Positions 3 through 49,998 of a DNA stretch of 64,000 bases are shown here, piece after piece. This DNA comes from an uncultured Christensenella sp. Lineage in GTDB: Bacteria > Bacillota > Clostridia > Christensenellales > UBA3700. Position 1 is the first letter of the stretch, and each line of letters begins with the position of its first letter. The notes beneath the pieces are model-generated. The model made no database searches. It was not told where the DNA came from and was given only the letters and a program-made list of their open reading frames with translations. The stretch lies in contig CASEHD010000003.1 in the NCBI GenBank assembly GCA_949287655.1, positions 6,897 to 70,896 on the forward strand, in the 5' to 3' direction. Position numbers and translations under genes: made by a program.

Positions 3-1004
3 TCGGACGGAGTATATGAATCGGCTCGATTCAGCGTTTCACAAATAGGGCTCGAAAAACTGCTCCTCGAGACGATCAAGGACAGCGAAGATTTGATCGA
101 AGTGAAAGACAAGCTGGAAGAGATCTACCTGACATACGGCAATCACGACGACAGCAGCACGATAGCTCTTAAGACTTTCGGTTACGAAGGATATGAAGAT
201 CTTAAAAAAGCCGCATCAAAACGGTTGGAAGAGATAACGGCGGATTACTTCGGCAAAATGCCCGATTTTCTTGATAAGGATTATATGTCCGAGGTAGAAA
301 ACGCTGAAAAAGCCGAAAGAATCAGACAAAACGCGATATCCGCAGAACTTTTGAAATTTGAAAAAGTTTCCGAATATTGCAAAAAAAAAGTGACAGGATC
401 GGATAAGACGGAAGAGATCGCTGCGCTCCAATCGCAAATCACAGAGAAAAAGGCAGTGATCGAAGAGACAAGAAAAAATATAGTAGATTTTCTTTGCGAA
501 AACGTAGGGGTAACGGATAACGTCGGCGATGACGGCGATAAATGCGGCGAGTCTCTGAATAACAATGAAAAGTTCTGTTTGTTCAGAAAGATCAGACGAA
601 TTACCGAAAACGAAGCGAAAGAGTTTGCGGAACGCCTTATCAATAAGGAGATAACGCCTGACAAGACGGGTATCGGACGTTCTCTTTCAAATAAGCTCGC
701 GCAGCTTCTCGAAGCAAACAAAATCGCGGAAGACGAGATCGCGCCGATCGAAAAAAAGCTTGAAAGCGAAATTAAGACCGCGGCAGATAAATATTGGTCG
801 GACGTCACCAAAGAAAACGCCGATATTACAGTTTTCTGCATGAACGAAGGTCTGATATCGGAAGAAGAGGCGGACAAACTTAACAATGATCATCCCTCAA
901 AGAAAAACGTAGACGAAGAAAGCGTACGTAAAGCTGCATTACAGCGTGAACTTTGTGAAAAATACGACGCCGTATTTTATTCACTTGTAAAGGAGACTGA
1001 ATAA
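3..1004 (+). CDS. hypothetical coiled-coil protein, 5' end cut by window edge
   Basis: The frame of ORF 93..1004 stays open back to nt 3, so the TTG at 93 is probably internal. Glu/Lys-rich, heptad-like; no motif recognised. Its stop overlaps the next start (TAATG at 1004). Confidence 0.55.
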   Translation, partial: SDGVYESARFSVSQIGLEKLLLETIKDSEDLIEVKDKLEEIYLTYGNHDDSSTIALKTFGYEGYEDLKKAASKRLEEITADYFGKMPDFLDKDYMSEVENAEKAERIRQNAISAELLKFEKVSEYCKKKVTGSDKTEEIAALQSQITEKKAVIEETRKNIVDFLCENVGVTDNVGDDGDKCGESLNNNEKFCLFRKIRRITENEAKEFAERLINKEITPDKTGIGRSLSNKLAQLLEANKIAEDEIAPIEKKLESEIKTAADKYWSDVTKENADITVFCMNEGLISEEEADKLNNDHPSKKNVDEESVRKAALQRELCEKYDAVFYSLVKETE

Positions 1005-2512
1005 TGGAAAGTATAAACGGTTACGAGATAACTACAGAATGGAAAAACAGTACCTGCGGAAAGATTGCATGCGCTACGCGCGGCGGCAAAAAGTATTTTA
1101 TCAAGAAATACCAGACGCCGGTCGAGCCGTTTGATAACGGAGCGCTCGACGCCCGTACCATCGAAGAAAACAGAAAAAAGTTCGATAAGTATGTGTCGAT
1201 CAGAAAGGAAGTAAACAACACTTTAAGAAGCGTCGCGGGCTCCGGCGGGAACATCGTTCCTCCCGTCGACGAGTTTATCTATGATCATCATTATCACGAA
1301 GTTTCGGAATTTATCGAAGGCGTCGTACCGGATGAGAAGATCGCGGCAACGATTGCGTCGTTGAAACCCGACGAGGTCCAACTCATACTTCTGACAGCAG
1401 TCAAGGCGTTGGATAGCATACATACGCGCAAAATGATTCACAGCGACCTGAAAGTCAAGAACATACTTCTTGCAAAAAGCCGCGGCGGTATGTTGATGAC
1501 GAAGCTTGTCGACTTCGACAACGCTTATTTTGAGGAAAAACTTCCCGACGAGGTCGTCGGCGATATAAACTATTATTCGCCGGAACTGGGGGCTTTTTCA
1601 ACTCTCGACGAAGAGGATAAGGAGTCTGCGTCAATTGCCCTTACGACCAAGTCGGATATTTTTTCCCTCGGGCTTATATTCCATCAATATCTGACCGGCA
1701 AATTCCCTGAACCCGTTTCGCTGTCCGAAATGTTGAAGAAGCGCAAGGAAAGAGGTAAGGCGATATATTGCTGGGCAGTTCTTAACGCCGGAGGCGGGCT
1801 CAAAGTAAGTGAGAAGATCACCAACAGAGTATATGCTGCTTTAATAGAACAGATGCTGGATAAAGATCCTGCAAAGCGTCCTACCGCAAACGACATCTGG
1901 AAAACTCTGAAAGGATTAAAATCTTCTTCCGGCGGCGCGTCGCCGTCTCCCGCGAGGCCCACTGCGATCCCGTCGGGAAGAACGTCCTACGGTTCGACGA
2001 CGACCCCGAGACCGACCCCTTCGCCCAGACCGGCGGCATCTGCGGCTGCGACGATCCCGTCTACCATAGCGATGGACGATCCGTGGCCGGAAGACGCGAT
2101 CGTGTTCGATAAAGAGAAGATCAGAAGCAGCGGTTACGCTAGCGTAAAGAGAGCGACTCAATCCGGAATAAACGGTTATAAATTATCTTTATCTGACGGC
2201 AGAGGCATGTTTATGAACAAAAACACGCTGATTTCGAGAAAATATGCGACTGCAGCAGGCACCGGAGCCGTCGCCGGAACAGGCTCATCTGCGCCGACTC
2301 CGCCTCCCGCGGCGGTCACAGGGTTCTGCGAACCCTGGCCGGAACACGGCATCGTCTTTAACGAGGCCGCTATCAGGGCTAGAGGCTACGTAAGCAGCGA
2401 GAGATCTGAGACGTCCGGCGTAAAAGGCTATAATTTTTACAGAGCGGACGGCAGAAAGGACTTTGTAAGGGACAGTCTTGCCGTAATGTTCAAAATGGCG
2501 ACGAGAGTCTGA
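1004..2512 (+). CDS. atypical soluble Ser/Thr protein kinase with duplicated C-terminal domain
   Basis: Hanks-type core: 'YFIKKY' (beta3 Lys), 'IHSDLKVKNILL' (catalytic loop), 'DFDNAY' (DFG-like), 'YYSPE' (APE-like). No TM segment. P/S/T/A-rich linkers are followed by two ~57-aa repeats. AGGAG lies 8 nt upstream. Confidence 0.8.
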   Translation: MESINGYEITTEWKNSTCGKIACATRGGKKYFIKKYQTPVEPFDNGALDARTIEENRKKFDKYVSIRKEVNNTLRSVAGSGGNIVPPVDEFIYDHHYHEVSEFIEGVVPDEKIAATIASLKPDEVQLILLTAVKALDSIHTRKMIHSDLKVKNILLAKSRGGMLMTKLVDFDNAYFEEKLPDEVVGDINYYSPELGAFSTLDEEDKESASIALTTKSDIFSLGLIFHQYLTGKFPEPVSLSEMLKKRKERGKAIYCWAVLNAGGGLKVSEKITNRVYAALIEQMLDKDPAKRPTANDIWKTLKGLKSSSGGASPSPARPTAIPSGRTSYGSTTTPRPTPSPRPAASAAATIPSTIAMDDPWPEDAIVFDKEKIRSSGYASVKRATQSGINGYKLSLSDGRGMFMNKNTLISRKYATAAGTGAVAGTGSSAPTPPPAAVTGFCEPWPEHGIVFNEAAIRARGYVSSERSETSGVKGYNFYRADGRKDFVRDSLAVMFKMATRV

Positions 2513-2523
2513 ATGATCGGAGC

Positions 2524-3579
2524 GTGAAAAAAATGAACGTCGTACGTACCGAAAGAGAATTGATAGCCCGGATAAAGAGTTCCGAGCCGGGAATTATCGT
2601 TCCGTGGAGCAACGGAGAGACTCTGTTTCGGAAAACGACTGAAAACAACCCGAAATTGTTATATTTGATCGACGAATGCAGGGTAAGCGAAAGATTTGAC
2701 CCGACGCTGCGGTGTCCCGTGACTGAGCTGACGATAAAGTATAATAAGGACGGGCTTTCGTACGACGACGTATTCGCCGTCGGCGACGCTTCCGATGTAA
2801 TGGCGCGATTGTTCGACTGCGTAGGAAATTTTAAGCCGAAAATCGGGCTCGTCTCCCGCGACTACATCGACATCGGCGTATTGATCAACCTGTTCGGAAA
2901 CAGATATTCTGCGATGTATCCGCACGCAGTGTCGCTGTCGGCAACGACGGTAAAATCGAATAAACTGTGCAGATATACGATATCGATCACATATCGCATT
3001 ACGCGCGATAAGATGGTCGTAATGGGAAACGCGGTAGAGCGCGAGTCTCAAAGAGTGGCGTCTCTGTTGTTTGAACCGTCAATGCCCGACGCGGTGAAGA
3101 TATACCTCGCGCACAATTATCTGTCCACGTCGATCGAGTATTACGGCGCTGATTCCGTCAACCCTCTCGAAAAGAGTTTTGTACACAGCGCTTACGGCGC
3201 GTTCGTTACAAAAAAATGTGTCTGTCAGGGAGTTGCGAACGCGTTCAAGATACTTATGGACAAAGCGGACGTAGACTGCGAAGTGGTATGCGGTCAGATC
3301 GTTGGAAGTTCAGGTTACCACGCGTGGAATATCGTCAGGAAGGAAGACGGCTGTTGTTTTCACGTCGACGCGACCTGGGATATTTCGTCCGGATATCCCG
3401 TGTTTACGTATTTTGGTAAAAACGATTCTTTTTTTAAAGATACCAGGGTATGGAACAAGGACAACTATCCGAAATGCCATTCGAGGCAGAACCTTTATAT
3501 GCTTGCGAGACAATATATAGTCGAAAACGCAGACAGACTTATCGCAAAGAAAATTCCGCCCGAGGTCATCGGGTTGTGA
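2524..3579 (+). CDS. transglutaminase-like cysteine protease domain protein
   Basis: Cys-His-Asp triad in canonical order: 'CVCQGVANAF' ... 'GYHAWNIV' ... 'FHVDATWD'. Only 11 nt after the kinase stop. ATG 2533 (GGAG 10 nt upstream) is an alternative start. Confidence 0.75.
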   Translation: MKKMNVVRTERELIARIKSSEPGIIVPWSNGETLFRKTTENNPKLLYLIDECRVSERFDPTLRCPVTELTIKYNKDGLSYDDVFAVGDASDVMARLFDCVGNFKPKIGLVSRDYIDIGVLINLFGNRYSAMYPHAVSLSATTVKSNKLCRYTISITYRITRDKMVVMGNAVERESQRVASLLFEPSMPDAVKIYLAHNYLSTSIEYYGADSVNPLEKSFVHSAYGAFVTKKCVCQGVANAFKILMDKADVDCEVVCGQIVGSSGYHAWNIVRKEDGCCFHVDATWDISSGYPVFTYFGKNDSFFKDTRVWNKDNYPKCHSRQNLYMLARQYIVENADRLIAKKIPPEVIGL

Positions 3580-3646
3580 TAAAAGCGCAAACGCGCGAAA
3601 AAAAACGCCGGTTGACGCCGGCATGGATAAACTACGGAGAATAATT

Positions 3647-4594
3647 ATGGATAGCAAGTTCGTAAAAGCGTACTGTACGCAAACAGGCGAGTATTTCGCT
3701 CTCGAAGTCAAAAAAATCGGAAGCAAATGGAAAGTTGTCAATTTTACGCAGCTCCCGGAATCCGACGCAAAGATAACCGCAAGCGAGGTCGAACAGTCTT
3801 CTTTTGAGACAAACGGCAATCTTCTGCCATGCCCCGACTGCGGCAACAGAAAGGTCGGCGGCTGCTCCTGCGCAAGGGGTAAAGGCGGTTGTTCACGCGG
3901 TATGAAATACCGTTTCAACTGTATCTACTGCGATAAGCTGAAAATTGATTACAGCGTGCCCGCGGCAAGCGAAAACGGATTGAAGGAAGGTACGAAGATC
4001 ACGCTTTCTCAGGGGCAGGAAGTCGTCATCAGATTTGCAGACAATAAGCCGCTTACCGACATATTCGTCGGCGTAGGCTGGGACCCGCTGTCAATCGGAA
4101 ATAATATGGACGTTATGGACGTGGATTCCGCTGTCGTCATCTCCGATAAACACGGAGATAATGATCTCATATGTTTCTATCGTAAAGAACATTGGAGCGG
4201 GTGCGCGAGACTTTACGCAGACAACCTGACCGGCAGAGACAGAGATACCGCATCTTTCAATACGGGCGACGACGAAAATATCGAGGTTGATCTTAAACGC
4301 GTTCCGGCGGATAAGGACAGACTGTATTTTATTGTCAACATCTACCATTGCAGAAGTAGATCTCAGACTCTCAGCAGCGTAAAGAATTTCTACATCCGCC
4401 TTTGCGACAGGGCAAGCAAGACCACGCTTATCGAGTACAAGGTCAATGACAGCCAGATCAACGGCAGTGATACGGGTATCGTCATCGGCGTAGCAAAGAG
4501 AAAAGGTTCAGACTGGACCTTCAAGGCTATAGGCAAGAGCTTCAACGTAAGCGATCTTAGTGAGCTTGCCGAAAAATGCAATGGACTTGACTGA
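3647..4594 (+). CDS. TerD-domain protein with N-terminal Cys-rich (zinc-ribbon-like) region
   Basis: TerD signatures: 'VGVGWDP', 'DVDSAVV', Ca-binding-type 'ADNLTG...TGDDENIEVDL', 'IVNIY'. N-terminal Cys cluster 'CPDCGNRKVGGCSC..GGC..NCIYC'. Start placed at ATG 3647 (GGAGA 6 nt upstream); the track start 3623 lacks an SD. Confidence 0.8.
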   Translation: MDSKFVKAYCTQTGEYFALEVKKIGSKWKVVNFTQLPESDAKITASEVEQSSFETNGNLLPCPDCGNRKVGGCSCARGKGGCSRGMKYRFNCIYCDKLKIDYSVPAASENGLKEGTKITLSQGQEVVIRFADNKPLTDIFVGVGWDPLSIGNNMDVMDVDSAVVISDKHGDNDLICFYRKEHWSGCARLYADNLTGRDRDTASFNTGDDENIEVDLKRVPADKDRLYFIVNIYHCRSRSQTLSSVKNFYIRLCDRASKTTLIEYKVNDSQINGSDTGIVIGVAKRKGSDWTFKAIGKSFNVSDLSELAEKCNGLD

Positions 4595-4648
4595 TATCTG
4601 CAGCAGCGCGGCGTTATAAGCCGTCGCCGTTGTCCTATATAAAGATCG

Positions 4649-4675
4649 AAAAGCCGCTTGAAAGCGGCTTTTTTA
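4649..4675 (+). terminator. rho-independent terminator after the TerD gene
   Basis: 'aagccgctt gaa aagcggctt' stem followed by a T-run. Confidence 0.8.
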
Positions 4676-4723: not shown

Positions 4724-4747
4724 ACGCCGCCAAAAGCGGCGTTTTTT
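4724..4747 (+). terminator. second intrinsic terminator-like hairpin just upstream of spoIIAA
   Basis: 'acgccgc caaaa gcggcgt' 7-bp stem followed by TTTTTT, 50 nt before the spoIIAA start. Confidence 0.6.
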
Positions 4748-4798
4748 CGACCTTGTCATTGTTTTATAATATTCTCACCGCAAAAAAAGGAGGATCAT

Positions 4799-5110
4799 AT
4801 GCAGCTGAGTATGTTAAACGACGGCGACACGGTTGTCGCCGCATTCGAGGGCGAGCTGGACGAGCATACGGCGGCGGACGTACGCAACGCGCTCGACAGC
4901 CGCATTGCGCGCGGCGGATTCAGGAATTTCGTTTTCGACTTCTCCCGTCTTAAATTTATGGACAGCACCGGCATAGGCGTGTTGCTCGGAAGATACAAAA
5001 CGCTGAAAAGAAGGGGCTCGGGGATATATATTTCTTCGCCCAACCCGCACGTGGACAAGATATTGTCGCTTGCCGGTATCTATTCGATTATTCAAAAAAT
5101 AAATCTGTGA
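4799..5110 (+). CDS. spoIIAA: anti-sigma F factor antagonist SpoIIAA (STAS domain)
   Basis: 'FDFSRLKFMDSTGIGVLLG' with the phosphorylatable Ser in DSTG. First gene in the spoIIAA-spoIIAB-sigF order. AAGGAGG SD. Confidence 0.9.
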   Translation: MQLSMLNDGDTVVAAFEGELDEHTAADVRNALDSRIARGGFRNFVFDFSRLKFMDSTGIGVLLGRYKTLKRRGSGIYISSPNPHVDKILSLAGIYSIIQKINL

Positions 5111-5117
5111 GGTCAAT

Positions 5118-5546
5118 ATGAACAAACTTTATATCAAAATTTCCGCCGATATCGCCAACGACGCGTTTATAAGAAGCACGGTCGCCGCGTTCTGTCTGGA
5201 GCTAGACCCGACCGTCGAGCAGATAGAGGACGTAAAGACGGCGGTATCCGAAGCGTTTACAAACTGCGTTATTCACGGTTACGACGGAAAAGAAGGCAAT
5301 TACGTTTATCTCGATCTGTGTGTAGACGACGGAAAATTGTCAATAATAATCAGCGACGGCGGCAAGGGTATCGAAAACGTAAAGCAGGCGATGGAGCCGT
5401 TCTTCACGACAAAACCCGAAGAGGAAAGAAGCGGTATGGGCTTCACTCTTATGAGCACTTTTATGGATGAGATCCGCGTGGACTCCACGCCGGGAAAAGG
5501 TACGACGGTTGCGATGGTTAAAAATATCGGAAAAGAGGTTGCCTGA
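5118..5546 (+). CDS. spoIIAB: anti-sigma F factor / Ser kinase SpoIIAB
   Basis: GHKL motifs: 'AVSEAFTNCVIHGY', 'DGGKGI', 'GMGFTLM'. Correct size and position. Confidence 0.9.
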   Translation: MNKLYIKISADIANDAFIRSTVAAFCLELDPTVEQIEDVKTAVSEAFTNCVIHGYDGKEGNYVYLDLCVDDGKLSIIISDGGKGIENVKQAMEPFFTTKPEEERSGMGFTLMSTFMDEIRVDSTPGKGTTVAMVKNIGKEVA

Positions 5547-6262
5547 TGCTTGATCACAATGAGACTGTCGACCTGATCGTTGCGGCGCAGAGCGGCGACG
5601 AAAAGGCAAAGGAAAAGCTGATCGTGAACAATATGCCGCTTATCAAGTCGATAGCGGCGCGATACCGCAACAAGATGATAGAATACGACGATCTTCTTCA
5701 GCTCGGCGCGATGGGACTGGTAAAAGCGATCAACAATTTCGACGTCTCTTTCGGGGTCAGATTTTCAACTTACGCGGTGCCGATGATAGCGGGCGAGATA
5801 AAAAGGTTCATCCGCGACGACGGCGCGATAAAGGTCAGCCGCGCGCTCAAGTCTATTTCACTGAAAATCAGGCAGATTACGTCCGAATATAAACAGACGC
5901 ACGGCGACGCGCCGACTGTCGAATATCTTGCGAAAAAACTGGGCGTAGACCCGCAGGAAGTCGTTTTCGCGATGGACAGCAGCAAGTATCCGGTATCGCT
6001 TTATGAAAAATACGACGACGAAAACTCTCAATGCGTGATGGACAAGCTGGCGACCGGCGAAGACGGCGACGAGTTGATAGACAAGATGATTTTAAAGGAC
6101 TTTATAAAGACATTGCCTTGTCGCGAAAAGACTGTGATAGTTTTAAGATATTTCAAGGACAAGACGCAAAGCGAGATCGCAAAGATACTGGGCGTTTCGC
6201 AGGTGCAGGTGTCGAGAATAGAAAGCAGGATAATAAGCGAGATGAAAAAAGCCCTGGCATGA
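5546..6262 (+). CDS. sigF: sporulation sigma factor SigF
   Basis: Sigma-70 region 2 'YDDLLQLGAMGLVKAINNFD' and 'STYAVPMIAGEIKRFIRD'; region 4 HTH 'QSEIAKILGVSQVQVSRIE'. Start overlaps the spoIIAB stop (TGATG). Confidence 0.9.
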   Translation: MLDHNETVDLIVAAQSGDEKAKEKLIVNNMPLIKSIAARYRNKMIEYDDLLQLGAMGLVKAINNFDVSFGVRFSTYAVPMIAGEIKRFIRDDGAIKVSRALKSISLKIRQITSEYKQTHGDAPTVEYLAKKLGVDPQEVVFAMDSSKYPVSLYEKYDDENSQCVMDKLATGEDGDELIDKMILKDFIKTLPCREKTVIVLRYFKDKTQSEIAKILGVSQVQVSRIESRIISEMKKALA

Positions 6263-7043: not shown

Positions 7044-7490
7044 ATGGACAAGAAAGAATATGCGGAATTGGTAAAACAGACGTCCCCGAAAACTAAGGAA
7101 GGCAGGACGATCCTGCTTGCATTCGTTGCGGGAGGACTTATTTGCGTGATAGGTCAGGCGGTATCGGACGCGCTTTCCGCACTTTTGCCGGCGTTCGACA
7201 AAAAGGATATCGGTGCGCTGACGGGAGTGGTCATGATATTCTTAGGCAGCCTTCTGACAGGACTGGGCGTTTATGACAAGATCGGATATTACGCGGGCGC
7301 GGGGTCTGTGATACCGATAACCGGTTTTGCAAATTCGATAGTTTCGCCGGCAATCGAATACAACAAAGAGGGCATTGTGTTCGGACTTATGGCGAAGATG
7401 TTTTCAATTGCGGGTCCTGTCATCGTATCAGGAGTCAGCGCGTCTGCGCTGATAGGCGTTGTATACTTTATAATTGGGTTGTTTAAATGA
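7044..7490 (+). CDS. spoVAC: stage V sporulation protein AC
   Basis: 148-aa multi-TM protein with 'GSVIPITGFANS', followed by spoVAD and spoVAE. GGAGAGG SD. Confidence 0.85.
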   Translation: MDKKEYAELVKQTSPKTKEGRTILLAFVAGGLICVIGQAVSDALSALLPAFDKKDIGALTGVVMIFLGSLLTGLGVYDKIGYYAGAGSVIPITGFANSIVSPAIEYNKEGIVFGLMAKMFSIAGPVIVSGVSASALIGVVYFIIGLFK

Positions 7491-8491
7491 AAAAAGGCAG
7501 ACAAACGTATATTACGGACAAAAAAATATATATAGCGAATACCGCGTCGATCGCAGGCGTTGACGAAGGGAAAGGACGTCTCAGAGACTTTTTCGACTAT
7601 GTGATTGATGAAAGCGAATTCGGCTGTAAATCGCACGAGAAGGCTGAAATAAAGCTGAGAAAGCACGCAATCGAAAGCCTTTTGAAGGAAGCGGAGATAA
7701 ACGCCGCGGACATCGACGCGATAATAGGCGGAGATCTTCTCAATCAGCTGGTACCTTCTGGGTTTTCGGCGCGCGAATTCGACGTGCCGTTCTGCGGACT
7801 TTACAGCGCGTGCGCCACTTTCGGACAGGCGCTCGCAACCGGCGCGATACTGTTGCAGGGCGGCGCGGAAAGGGTTATATGCTGTACGAGTTCTCATTTC
7901 GCGACAGCGGAAAGACAGTACCGTTTTCCGCTTGAACTGGGCACACAGCCGCCTCCGACGGCGCAATGGACGGTAACGGGCGCGGGCTGTGCGCTGCTCA
8001 CAACCGCAAAGCCGAAATACAAATGCCCGAAAATAGCCGCGTTTACTCTCGGAAAGGTAATTGATATGGGGCTTGACGACCCCAACAATATGGGCGCGGC
8101 TATGGCTCCCGCGGCATATGACACGATATCCGCGCATTTAAGAGAACGCGGGGTAGGCGCGGATTATTACGACCTGATCGTGACAGGAGACCTGGGCAAG
8201 CTGGGAAGAGAGCTGCTGTGCACGATGCTCGAGCGGGAATGCGGCGCGGTCAAAGACAGGGTCAACGACTGCGGCTGCATGATATTCAAAGACAGACAGA
8301 AATGCGGACTCGGCGGGTCGGGCGCGGGTTGCAGCAGTCTGGTATTTTGCAGTTATCTTTACAAGACCATGAAAGAGGGCGGATTAAATAAAATACTGCT
8401 GGTGCCGACCGGCGCGATGCTCTCGAAAGATTCGTCCCTTCAGGGCGAAAGCATACCCGCGATAGCTCACGCGGTCGCGATAGAAGCGTAA
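7487..8491 (+). CDS. spoVAD: stage V sporulation protein AD
   Basis: 334 aa, thiolase/KAS-like ('GLYSACATFGQALATG', 'TAQWTVTGAG'). Overlaps spoVAC by 4 nt. Confidence 0.85.
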   Translation: MKKGRQTYITDKKIYIANTASIAGVDEGKGRLRDFFDYVIDESEFGCKSHEKAEIKLRKHAIESLLKEAEINAADIDAIIGGDLLNQLVPSGFSAREFDVPFCGLYSACATFGQALATGAILLQGGAERVICCTSSHFATAERQYRFPLELGTQPPPTAQWTVTGAGCALLTTAKPKYKCPKIAAFTLGKVIDMGLDDPNNMGAAMAPAAYDTISAHLRERGVGADYYDLIVTGDLGKLGRELLCTMLERECGAVKDRVNDCGCMIFKDRQKCGLGGSGAGCSSLVFCSYLYKTMKEGGLNKILLVPTGAMLSKDSSLQGESIPAIAHAVAIEA

Positions 8492-8504
8492 ACGGAGAGG
8501 ATTT

Positions 8505-8873
8505 ATGGATATATTTCTTACCTATCTTAAAGTGTTTGCGGTCGGCGGACTCGTCTGCGCGATCGGTCAGATACTGATAAACAAGACGAAAATGACGTCT
8601 GCGCGAGTGCTCGTGACATTTCTGCTGGCGGGCGCGTTACTTGAAGCAGTCGGACTGTTCAAATATATAGAAGAGTTCGGCAAGGCGGGTATAACGATAC
8701 CGATAACCGGCTTCGGAAAGTCTCTCGCGGCAGGCGCGATAGACGGTGCGAAAGACGGACTGTTCAAAGCATGTACGGGCGGTTTGGCGGCAGTCGCGGC
8801 TGGACTTACGGCGGCGATAACGTTCGGATTTGTGATCGCGCTTATATCCAAATCAAAACCGAAAAGCACCTGA
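8505..8873 (+). CDS. spoVAE: stage V sporulation protein AE (SpoVAEB type)
   Basis: 122-aa TM protein with 'GITIPITGFGKSLAAGA', paralogous to SpoVAC. Third gene of the operon. Confidence 0.8.
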   Translation: MDIFLTYLKVFAVGGLVCAIGQILINKTKMTSARVLVTFLLAGALLEAVGLFKYIEEFGKAGITIPITGFGKSLAAGAIDGAKDGLFKACTGGLAAVAAGLTAAITFGFVIALISKSKPKST

Positions 8874-49923: not shown

Positions 49924-49998
49924 TGGCAGGGGAGACGCGATTCGAACACGCAACCAATGGTTTTGGAGACCACTACTCTACCGTTGAGCCACTCCCCT
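49924..49998 (-). tRNA. tRNA-Trp (anticodon CCA), CCA end encoded
   Basis: Hand-folded cloverleaf: acceptor AGGGGAG/CTCCCCT; anticodon stem GTGGT/ACCAT with loop CTCCAAA; T-loop TTCGAAT; 75 nt. Confidence 0.9.

Follow-up and report, generated by a model that had tools for sequence, protein, structure and literature searches.

The 64,000-nucleotide stretch of an uncultured Christensenella sp. analysed here (contig CASEHD010000003.1, positions 6,897 to 70,896 of the forward strand; hereafter the window) opens with four co-directional genes at positions 3 to 4,675. We found that these genes are the 3′ half of a seven-gene operon of ∼8 kb, in which three TerY-like vWA genes are followed by genes for a PP2C phosphatase, a Ser/Thr kinase, a transglutaminase-like protein, and a fusion of a Cys-rich module to a TerD domain. 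Judged from their sequences, the vWA, PP2C, and kinase genes constitute a TerY-P triad joined to TerD. Related operons form a cassette family in gut Clostridia, and we consider, with somewhat better than even confidence, that the cassette is a TerY-P-type phospho-switch coupled to TerD and acts as a conflict or stress module.

A first-pass annotation, made from the letters of the window, had described the four genes as an operon without vWA or phosphatase genes, named the triad of TerY vWA, PP2C, and kinase as a comparator, and not recognized the combination as a described system. That interpretation was right in direction and wrong where it looked new. Its link to Ter-type systems stands. The absence of vWA and phosphatase genes was an artefact of the window edge, and because both are present the locus is the comparator triad itself, already joined to TerD in classical ter clusters. 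A ‘missing partner’ at the edge of a window therefore calls for flanking sequence before novelty is asserted.

Extent and layout of the operon

Coordinates of the four window genes are window positions on the plus strand, and L-numbers denote the public contigs and loci compared. An exact look-up of the kinase protein returned two public contigs. L001, one of the two, matches the window with 100% identity across 6633 shared bp and reaches 6691 bp further upstream, adding the 5′ part of the phosphatase gene and three paralogous vWA genes. The phosphatase gene begins 784 bp upstream of the window, and the vWA genes lie 1.1–3.2 kb upstream of position 1. The operon thus continues past the edge of the window, as had been suspected from its open first gene.

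Within the window, the sequence and the list of open reading frames (ORFs) show the tight packing and closing terminator that had been reported. Gene 1 is open at the 5′ end of the window (3–1004, corresponding to residues 262–595 of the 595-aa ORF completed on L001) and ends in a TAA stop at 1002–1004, which the kinase ATG at 1004 overlaps by 1 nt (TAATG). The kinase gene (1004–2512, 502 aa) ends in TGA at 2510–2512. Gene 3, with its TGA stop at 3577–3579, has two candidate starts, GTG at 2524 and ATG at 2533, leaving gaps of 11 and 20 nt, respectively. The 11-nt gap of the first-pass annotation holds for the GTG. Sequence comparison makes the ATG the more likely start, because a GGAG (2519–2522) sits 10 nt upstream of it and all 20 of 20 homologues begin at that column; the public gene call likewise has 348 aa (2533–3579). 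Gene 4 (3647–4594; alternative start ATG at 3623) begins with an ATG at 3647 after the reported 67-nt gap.

The operon is closed by an intrinsic terminator on the plus strand at 4649–4674 (GCCGC-TTGAAA-GCGGC followed by six Ts). It is also flanked by an A-run and so is usable in both directions; a hairpin scan placed it at L001 11340–11363 with the minus strand in its listing, the plus-strand use being read from the sequence. A second terminator-like hairpin lies at 4724–4748 (L001 11415–11433, plus strand), ahead of spoIIAA. None of the seven operon proteins has a predicted signal peptide or transmembrane (TM) segment, and all seven are by this measure cytoplasmic.

The phosphatase, kinase, and vWA proteins

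Gene 1 had been labelled a coiled-coil protein. Sequence comparison instead identifies it as a PP2C phosphatase with a long charged C-terminal tail. The PP2C signatures of the full ORF all fall within its N-terminal 330 residues, and 13 homologues show no variation in the motifs GEDA, VADGLGG, GTT, AGDSR, NASDG, and HDDSST. The window retains only the last two of these, SDG at ∼3–11 and HDDSST at ∼144–161, and so what it holds of gene 1 is the tail of a phosphatase. When the homologue profile was compared with the PDB, all 15 of 15 matches were bacterial PP2C phosphatases (best E 2.5e-5). The only Pfam match of the full protein is a weak one to SpoIIE (E 0.013), which by sequence reflects just the common PP2C fold, and Pfam finds no domain in the window-borne part. 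The tail (∼230–1001) is charged (∼38% E/K/D/R) and low in Pro and Gly. In a crude test for a coiled coil, heptad windows made up 15%, against 12 ± 7% in shuffled sequences, and the label is thus not supported.

The kinase matches Pkinase in Pfam with E 2.7e-24. Its kinase domain (∼1004–1930) is followed by a Pro/Ser/Thr-rich linker. The motifs HSD (residues 146–148) and DFD (residues 170–172) are present and the protein is cytoplasmic, as first described, but the description of these motifs as degenerate does not hold: K34, D148, K150, N153, D170, SPE, D218, and R292 are invariant across 14 kinase homologues. The sequence is that of a non-RD, catalytically competent kinase. A pseudokinase was ruled out, since all catalytic residues are invariant.

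At its C-terminus, the kinase carries two tandem repeats of ∼60 aa, termed here PWPEH repeats, at ∼2072–2250 and ∼2324–2509. They follow the pattern PWPEH..I.F....I...GY......G.KGY.F and match no Pfam family; relatives have 2–4 copies. A homologue search using the C-terminal repeats alone returned nothing. PWPEH repeats also stand alone in proteins encoded in the variable part of related operons (L005 4863–6635, L011 5252–5779, L014 2128–2634, and L016 2246–2821).

The three upstream vWA genes match VWA_4/VWA_2 in Pfam. Residues D17, T19, and D133, resembling a metal-ion-dependent adhesion site (MIDAS), are invariant and S21 is present in at least 90% of sequences, and the MIDAS-like motifs DxTxS, GGGDxPEN, and TDA are kept. 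The vWA proteins resemble enterobacterial TerY only weakly (hhalign probability 54%). The closest relatives of the vWA and PP2C proteins outside the clade belong to a stand-alone vWA-PP2C-kinase triad on the Herpetosiphon plasmid pHAU01, where the vWA protein is 44.5% identical and the PP2C protein matches the middle gene with an hhalign probability of 99.1%.

The transglutaminase-like protein and the TerD fusion

The assignments of the first-pass annotation for the last three proteins of the operon (Pkinase, Transglut_core, and TerD) all passed profile searches. The gene 3 product scores 25.3 bits against Transglut_core in Pfam (cut-off 23) and matches an NCBIfam transglutaminase-related model with E 7e-22. 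Its triad was found intact, as had been claimed, with C231 (3223–3225), H263 (3319–3321), and D279 (3367–3369) conserved in the family; among 21 family sequences H263 and D279 are invariant and C231 is present in at least 90%. An N-terminal alpha/beta domain occupies residues 1–180. The AlphaFold2 model has a mean pLDDT (model-confidence score) of 87.6, and its best fold match is Streptococcus pyogenes TglA (9crn, Foldseek E 1.5e-8); further transglutaminase-like cysteine proteases (4xz7 and 3isr) rank next. We found no paper on S. pyogenes TglA by literature search. Sequence and model together indicate a transglutaminase-fold thiol enzyme with intact catalytic residues. The family is narrow, accounting for 21 clusters (90% identity) among 5.8 billion proteins, and is almost confined to the cassette.

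Gene 4 fuses a Cys-rich module (residues 1–105, 3647–3961) to a TerD domain (residues 118–310, 3998–4576), as the first-pass annotation had described. TerD is recognized by Pfam with E 4e-34; in the PDB, entry 3ibz is matched by sequence (E 2.4e-20) and by fold (E 3.5e-15), as is 2kxt. The conserved motifs of the domain include DVD, DNLTG, and GDDE of the Ca site. In the structural model of the fusion (pLDDT 84) the N-terminal module is confidently folded (pLDDT 83–96), and a fold search with the whole protein returned TerD-domain matches only. The TerD fusion family comprises at least 142 clusters.

The N-terminal module has ∼8 conserved cysteines in the pattern CxKT...Y ... CPxCG-x7-CSC-x4-6-C-x8-9-CxxC, and its sequence suggests that it probably binds Zn. 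HMMER, run exhaustively over 1.84 billion representatives, returned only 69 proteins with the module, which is N-terminal in every one. Among the 40 longer proteins, the module runs into TerD in 18 and into vWA in 4, and the others continue into regions without a Pfam match or into sporadic other domains. Several cassettes have paralogues consisting of the module and an unknown domain next to the TerD gene.

The Cys spacing of the module is co-linear with that of the TerY-C metal-binding domain of enterobacterial TerY, and the hidden Markov model of the module ranks real TerY-C over 99.4–100% of composition-matched shuffles. Profile-profile alignment of the two with hhalign gave E 0.005–0.009 but a probability of only 5–7%, and the Pfam TerY_C model (PF15616) did not match the module at E ≤ 10. 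The module is possibly TerY-C-like on this sequence evidence; because the profile-profile probability is low, we treat the relationship as a lead and not as a result.

A cassette family in gut Clostridia

We examined the genomic contexts of ∼20 independent loci whose transglutaminase-like proteins are 33–68% identical. The recurring order is one to three vWA genes, PP2C, kinase, 0–7.8 kb of cargo, transglutaminase, and Cys-rich-TerD, and vWA, PP2C, and kinase are held together in the relatives. The genes thus co-occur well beyond close relatives, the lack of which the first-pass annotation had named as a refutation: they are found together at 33–45% identity in varied genomic contexts and gut hosts. 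The hosts are uncultured Clostridia of the chicken, yak, sheep, horse, rabbit, deer, and human gut, among them members of Ornithoclostridium, Oscillospiraceae, Christensenellaceae, and “Eubacteriales”. Flanks vary by locus and include genes of integrative and conjugative elements, ABC transporters, and DNA-repair genes (UvrA/RecD2). The PP2C protein with its tail is 590–775 aa long in the closer relatives and 906 aa in the distant L020; the kinase is ∼500–576 aa long among relatives and 642 aa in L020.

The cargo slot lies between the kinase and transglutaminase genes. It is empty in the window copy, in its nearest relative L009, and in L017, which are minimal, cargo-free cassettes. Elsewhere it holds Zn-ribbon proteins with leucine-rich repeats (LRRs; ZnR-LRR_5) or Sel1 repeats (ZnR-Sel1), an M48 peptidase with a 408-aa partner, a GDSL lipase, or SUKH plus Tox-GHH. 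A short N-terminal RanBP-type Zn ribbon is present on BspA-type LRR or Sel1 cargo at L011 5792–7735, L013 7813–9523, L015 7929–9905, and L022 4546–7186, and has the look of a tag shared by variable recognition proteins.

Further genes accompany individual cassettes. In one lineage (L028/L029, 2717–5286) a SUKH immunity protein, a Tox-GHH toxin, and a TraG/VirD4-like ATPase are encoded between kinase and transglutaminase. At L003 1–4032 and L030 893–3160, the vWA genes are preceded by genes for a DUF4231 protein, an AAA ATPase of the SpoVK type, and two small proteins. In L009, a protein with a Zn ribbon, an acidic region, and a TM segment is encoded immediately past the TerD gene. The upstream flank of the window copy recurs in L009, where the acetyltransferase is 92% identical, compared with 61–85% for the cassette proteins; drawn from a single flanking gene, this hints that the cassette is diverging faster than its flank.

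Control region and neighbouring genes

A perfect TTGACA-17-TATAAT promoter lies at L001 2919–2947, ∼520 bp before the first vWA gene. Two small ORFs (46 and 51 aa) are located between this promoter and the first vWA gene, and a double helix-turn-helix regulator of the XRE type is divergently transcribed at L001 2059–2538. The operon may be controlled from this segment, L001 2059–3465. A GC-rich stem-loop with a preceding A-run is present in the 67-nt gap ahead of gene 4 (window 3605–3624, L001 10296–10315). It is terminator-like on the minus strand only, where there is nothing to terminate, and may serve as an mRNA processing or stability element. Neither the operon nor the region upstream of it has a riboswitch or leader match in Rfam; the sole Rfam match in the 64-kb window is one tRNA gene (49927–49998, minus strand). 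At the far upstream end of L001, a 179-aa ORF (100–900) is internally repetitive, with tblastn self-matches at several offsets.

The locus is flanked by an acetyltransferase gene and the XRE regulator on one side and by the spoIIA operon on the other. The genes spoIIAA-spoIIAB-sigF begin 205 bp past the TerD gene (window 4799–6262) and are followed by spoVAC/spoVAD/spoVAE-like genes (7044–8873); the spoIIA and spoVA genes therefore mark the host as a spore-forming member of the Clostridia. By its flank, the nearest relative is Candidatus Ornithoclostridium faecavium.

Function of the cassette

By its sequence annotations, the cargo of the cassette is of the kind commonly seen in conflict systems, and the suggestion in the first-pass annotation of a conflict, defence, or stress module is plausible. 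Both TerY-P triads and TerD proteins occur widely and have been linked to phage, colicin, and tellurite resistance, and the operon described here would be a compact, all-cytoplasmic version with seven genes, no membrane partner, and no nuclease. We infer the following course of events. The vWA proteins would serve as scaffolds or sensors that depend on a metal or a ligand, and kinase and phosphatase would set a phosphorylation threshold on the vWA proteins or on the output proteins. Shared small modules, namely the Cys-rich N-terminal module, the RanBP-type Zn ribbons of the LRR and Sel1 cargo, and the kinase repeats, may serve to dock exchangeable outputs or sensors on the hub so formed. The trigger could be a phage or other invader, or an envelope or ion stress read via TerD. 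Once triggered, the thiol enzyme might cleave or cross-link a target, so that thiol enzyme and TerD would be outputs or co-sensors of the response. Both predicted outputs, a Cys-His-Asp enzyme and a Ca-binding-type TerD, appear suited to enzymology, and the natural cargo variants help to tell core from swappable parts.

Several observations weigh against this phospho-switch reading. The locus lies in no obvious defence island, and the window version has neither a nuclease nor a pore-forming effector. PADLOC-DB 2.0 models match none of the vWA, PP2C, transglutaminase, and TerD proteins, and the kinase meets only generic PADLOC kinase models (mad6, PD-T4-6, and MkoA-type). The transglutaminase is frequent and not universal: L026 lacks it and ends in an M48 peptidase and TerD. 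Similarity to the enterobacterial TerY, PP2C, and kinase is at superfamily level only, and the functional assignment as a whole is built on sequences and structural models.

A broader form of the same idea is that the cassette belongs to an undescribed modular immune or conflict family, in which a vWA/PP2C/kinase hub recruits interchangeable sensors and effectors via three docking modules. The sensors and effectors would be TerD, the transglutaminase-like enzyme, the M48 peptidase, LRR and Sel1 proteins, the lipase, and the toxins, and docking would be through the TerY-C-like Cys-rich N-terminal domain, the RanBP-type Zn ribbons, and the PWPEH repeats. If so, the copy in the window would represent the core at its smallest, the thiol enzyme and a Ca-sensing TerD being its sole outputs. 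We regard this as a possibility worth keeping in view, although we would not bet on it.

It is also conceivable, if rather unlikely, that the cassette is a Ter-type module for chemical or metal stress (tellurite, metal, or membrane damage), in which TerD binds Ca2+ or another metal and the triad regulates the response. The conserved Ca-site motifs of TerD fit such a role, three vWA proteins with TerD, PP2C, and kinase are also what the terY/terX arm of tellurite-resistance clusters is made of (PMC12054061), and the Cys-rich module may be kin to the metal-binding TerY-C domain. However, the window and the 6.7 kb upstream contain no TerC, TerB, or TerA/Z/E-type partner, a metabolite-biosynthesis arm is missing from the operon, and variable LRR, Sel1, and toxin cargo in shifting contexts suits conflict better than metal homeostasis. 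Because of this cargo and the absence of TerC and TerB, defence is somewhat more likely than chemical stress as the role of the cassette.

Control of secretion or inter-bacterial toxin delivery, with the triad governing the export or activation of polymorphic toxins, seems improbable. Some relatives do embed a SUKH immunity protein, a Tox-GHH toxin, and a TraG/VirD4-like ATPase in the operon, others have the SpoVK-like AAA ATPase and DUF4231 protein just upstream, and TerY-P triads have been reported beside WXG100/FtsK secretion genes (PMC4978471, PMC11090510). These ATPase, toxin, and immunity extras are nevertheless sporadic among relatives, and the window version lacks ATPase, toxin, immunity, and membrane components, with a signal peptide or TM segment in 0 of 7 proteins.

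A part in sporulation or developmental signalling is very improbable. It is suggested by the start of the spoIIA operon 205 bp past the TerD gene and by the weak SpoIIE match of the phosphatase, but two terminators separate the operons, the SpoIIE match reflects the PP2C fold alone, and spoIIA genes are missing from the 10 kb retrieved to each side of every homologous cassette in other genomes; for want of this synteny the link was rejected. The self-contained four-gene system without vWA and phosphatase of the first-pass annotation, which is what the window taken by itself shows, is scarcely credible given the phosphatase domain of gene 1 and the three vWA genes on the identical contig L001 and the retention of vWA, PP2C, and kinase as a set in relatives.

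Comparison with known systems

The TerY-P triad, consisting of a TerY-like vWA protein, a PP2C phosphatase, and a Ser/Thr kinase, was described by Anantharaman, Iyer & Aravind in 2012, as cited in PMC11090510 and PMC4978471. Such triads are predicted metal-sensing phosphorylation switches found near many DNA-processing, secretion, and restriction modules (PMC11090510, PMC4978471). TerY-P-like modules have also been reported as stand-alone anti-phage systems (PMC7699616, PMC11090510, PMC4978471), including a report by Gao et al. 2020 as summarized in PMC7699616. Our cassette resembles these triads in the order of vWA(s), PP2C, and kinase in one operon, in a kinase with an extra C-terminal module, and in its variable, apparently mobile contexts. 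The kinase tail described for other triads is a Zn ribbon or an OB fold (PMC11090510); the tail here consists of two to four tandem repeats of ∼60 aa that match no Pfam family. The PP2C protein bears a charged tail of 260–440 aa, and the cassette adds the transglutaminase-like gene and the TerD fusion, with the cargo slot in between. The DUF4231/SpoVK-like AAA extension of some cassettes echoes the vWA-flanked ATPase extensions of CoCoNuT systems (PMC11090510). PHROGs gave generic kinase and TerD matches only.

Classical ter clusters already combine a triad with TerD. On an IncHI2 plasmid, the order VWA - TerD - VWA - VWA(TerY-C) - PP2C - kinase is found beside terZABCDEF; clusters of this type, conferring tellurite resistance, are named terY-CYXYW-ZABCDEF (PMC12054061). 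The ter cluster of an Azospirillum plasmid has four TerD genes, TerB, TerC, three VWA genes, PP2C, and kinase in one direction. As in the terY/terX arm, three vWA genes, a TerD-family gene, PP2C, and kinase form one co-directional block in our operon, and the Cys pattern of the N-terminal module is similar to that of the TerY-C domain. By sequence, then, the union of triad and TerD was already in place in the classical clusters. The cassette differs from them in lacking TerC, TerB, TerA/Z/E, and the biosynthetic arm; in tblastn searches with plasmid queries, TerC, TerB, and TerA had no match in the window and L001 at E ≤ 1. Its TerD gene comes last and not between vWA genes, its Cys-rich module is on TerD and not on a vWA protein, and it adds a transglutaminase-like gene. 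In the biosynthetic arm of one classical ter cluster (L034 11617–12696), a thiol enzyme is annotated as ‘cysteine protease StiP domain’.

The transglutaminase-like protein shares the Cys-His-Asp core, the fold, and the two-domain layout of transglutaminase-like cysteine peptidases such as TglA (9crn) and a Cytophaga protein (3isr). Unlike these peptidases in general, its family is narrow, cytoplasmic, and nearly restricted to the cassette; the enzyme may be a protease, a cross-linker, or a deamidase. Our literature search, which did not cover the 2012 survey of triad contexts, returned no description of a triad accompanied by a transglutaminase-like protein and by Cys-rich-TerD as the last gene. 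Set against the known triads and ter clusters, three parts of the system appear to be undescribed: the partner of transglutaminase type, the Cys-rich module of narrow distribution that precedes TerD, and the family of gut-clostridial cassettes with exchangeable cargo in which they are combined.

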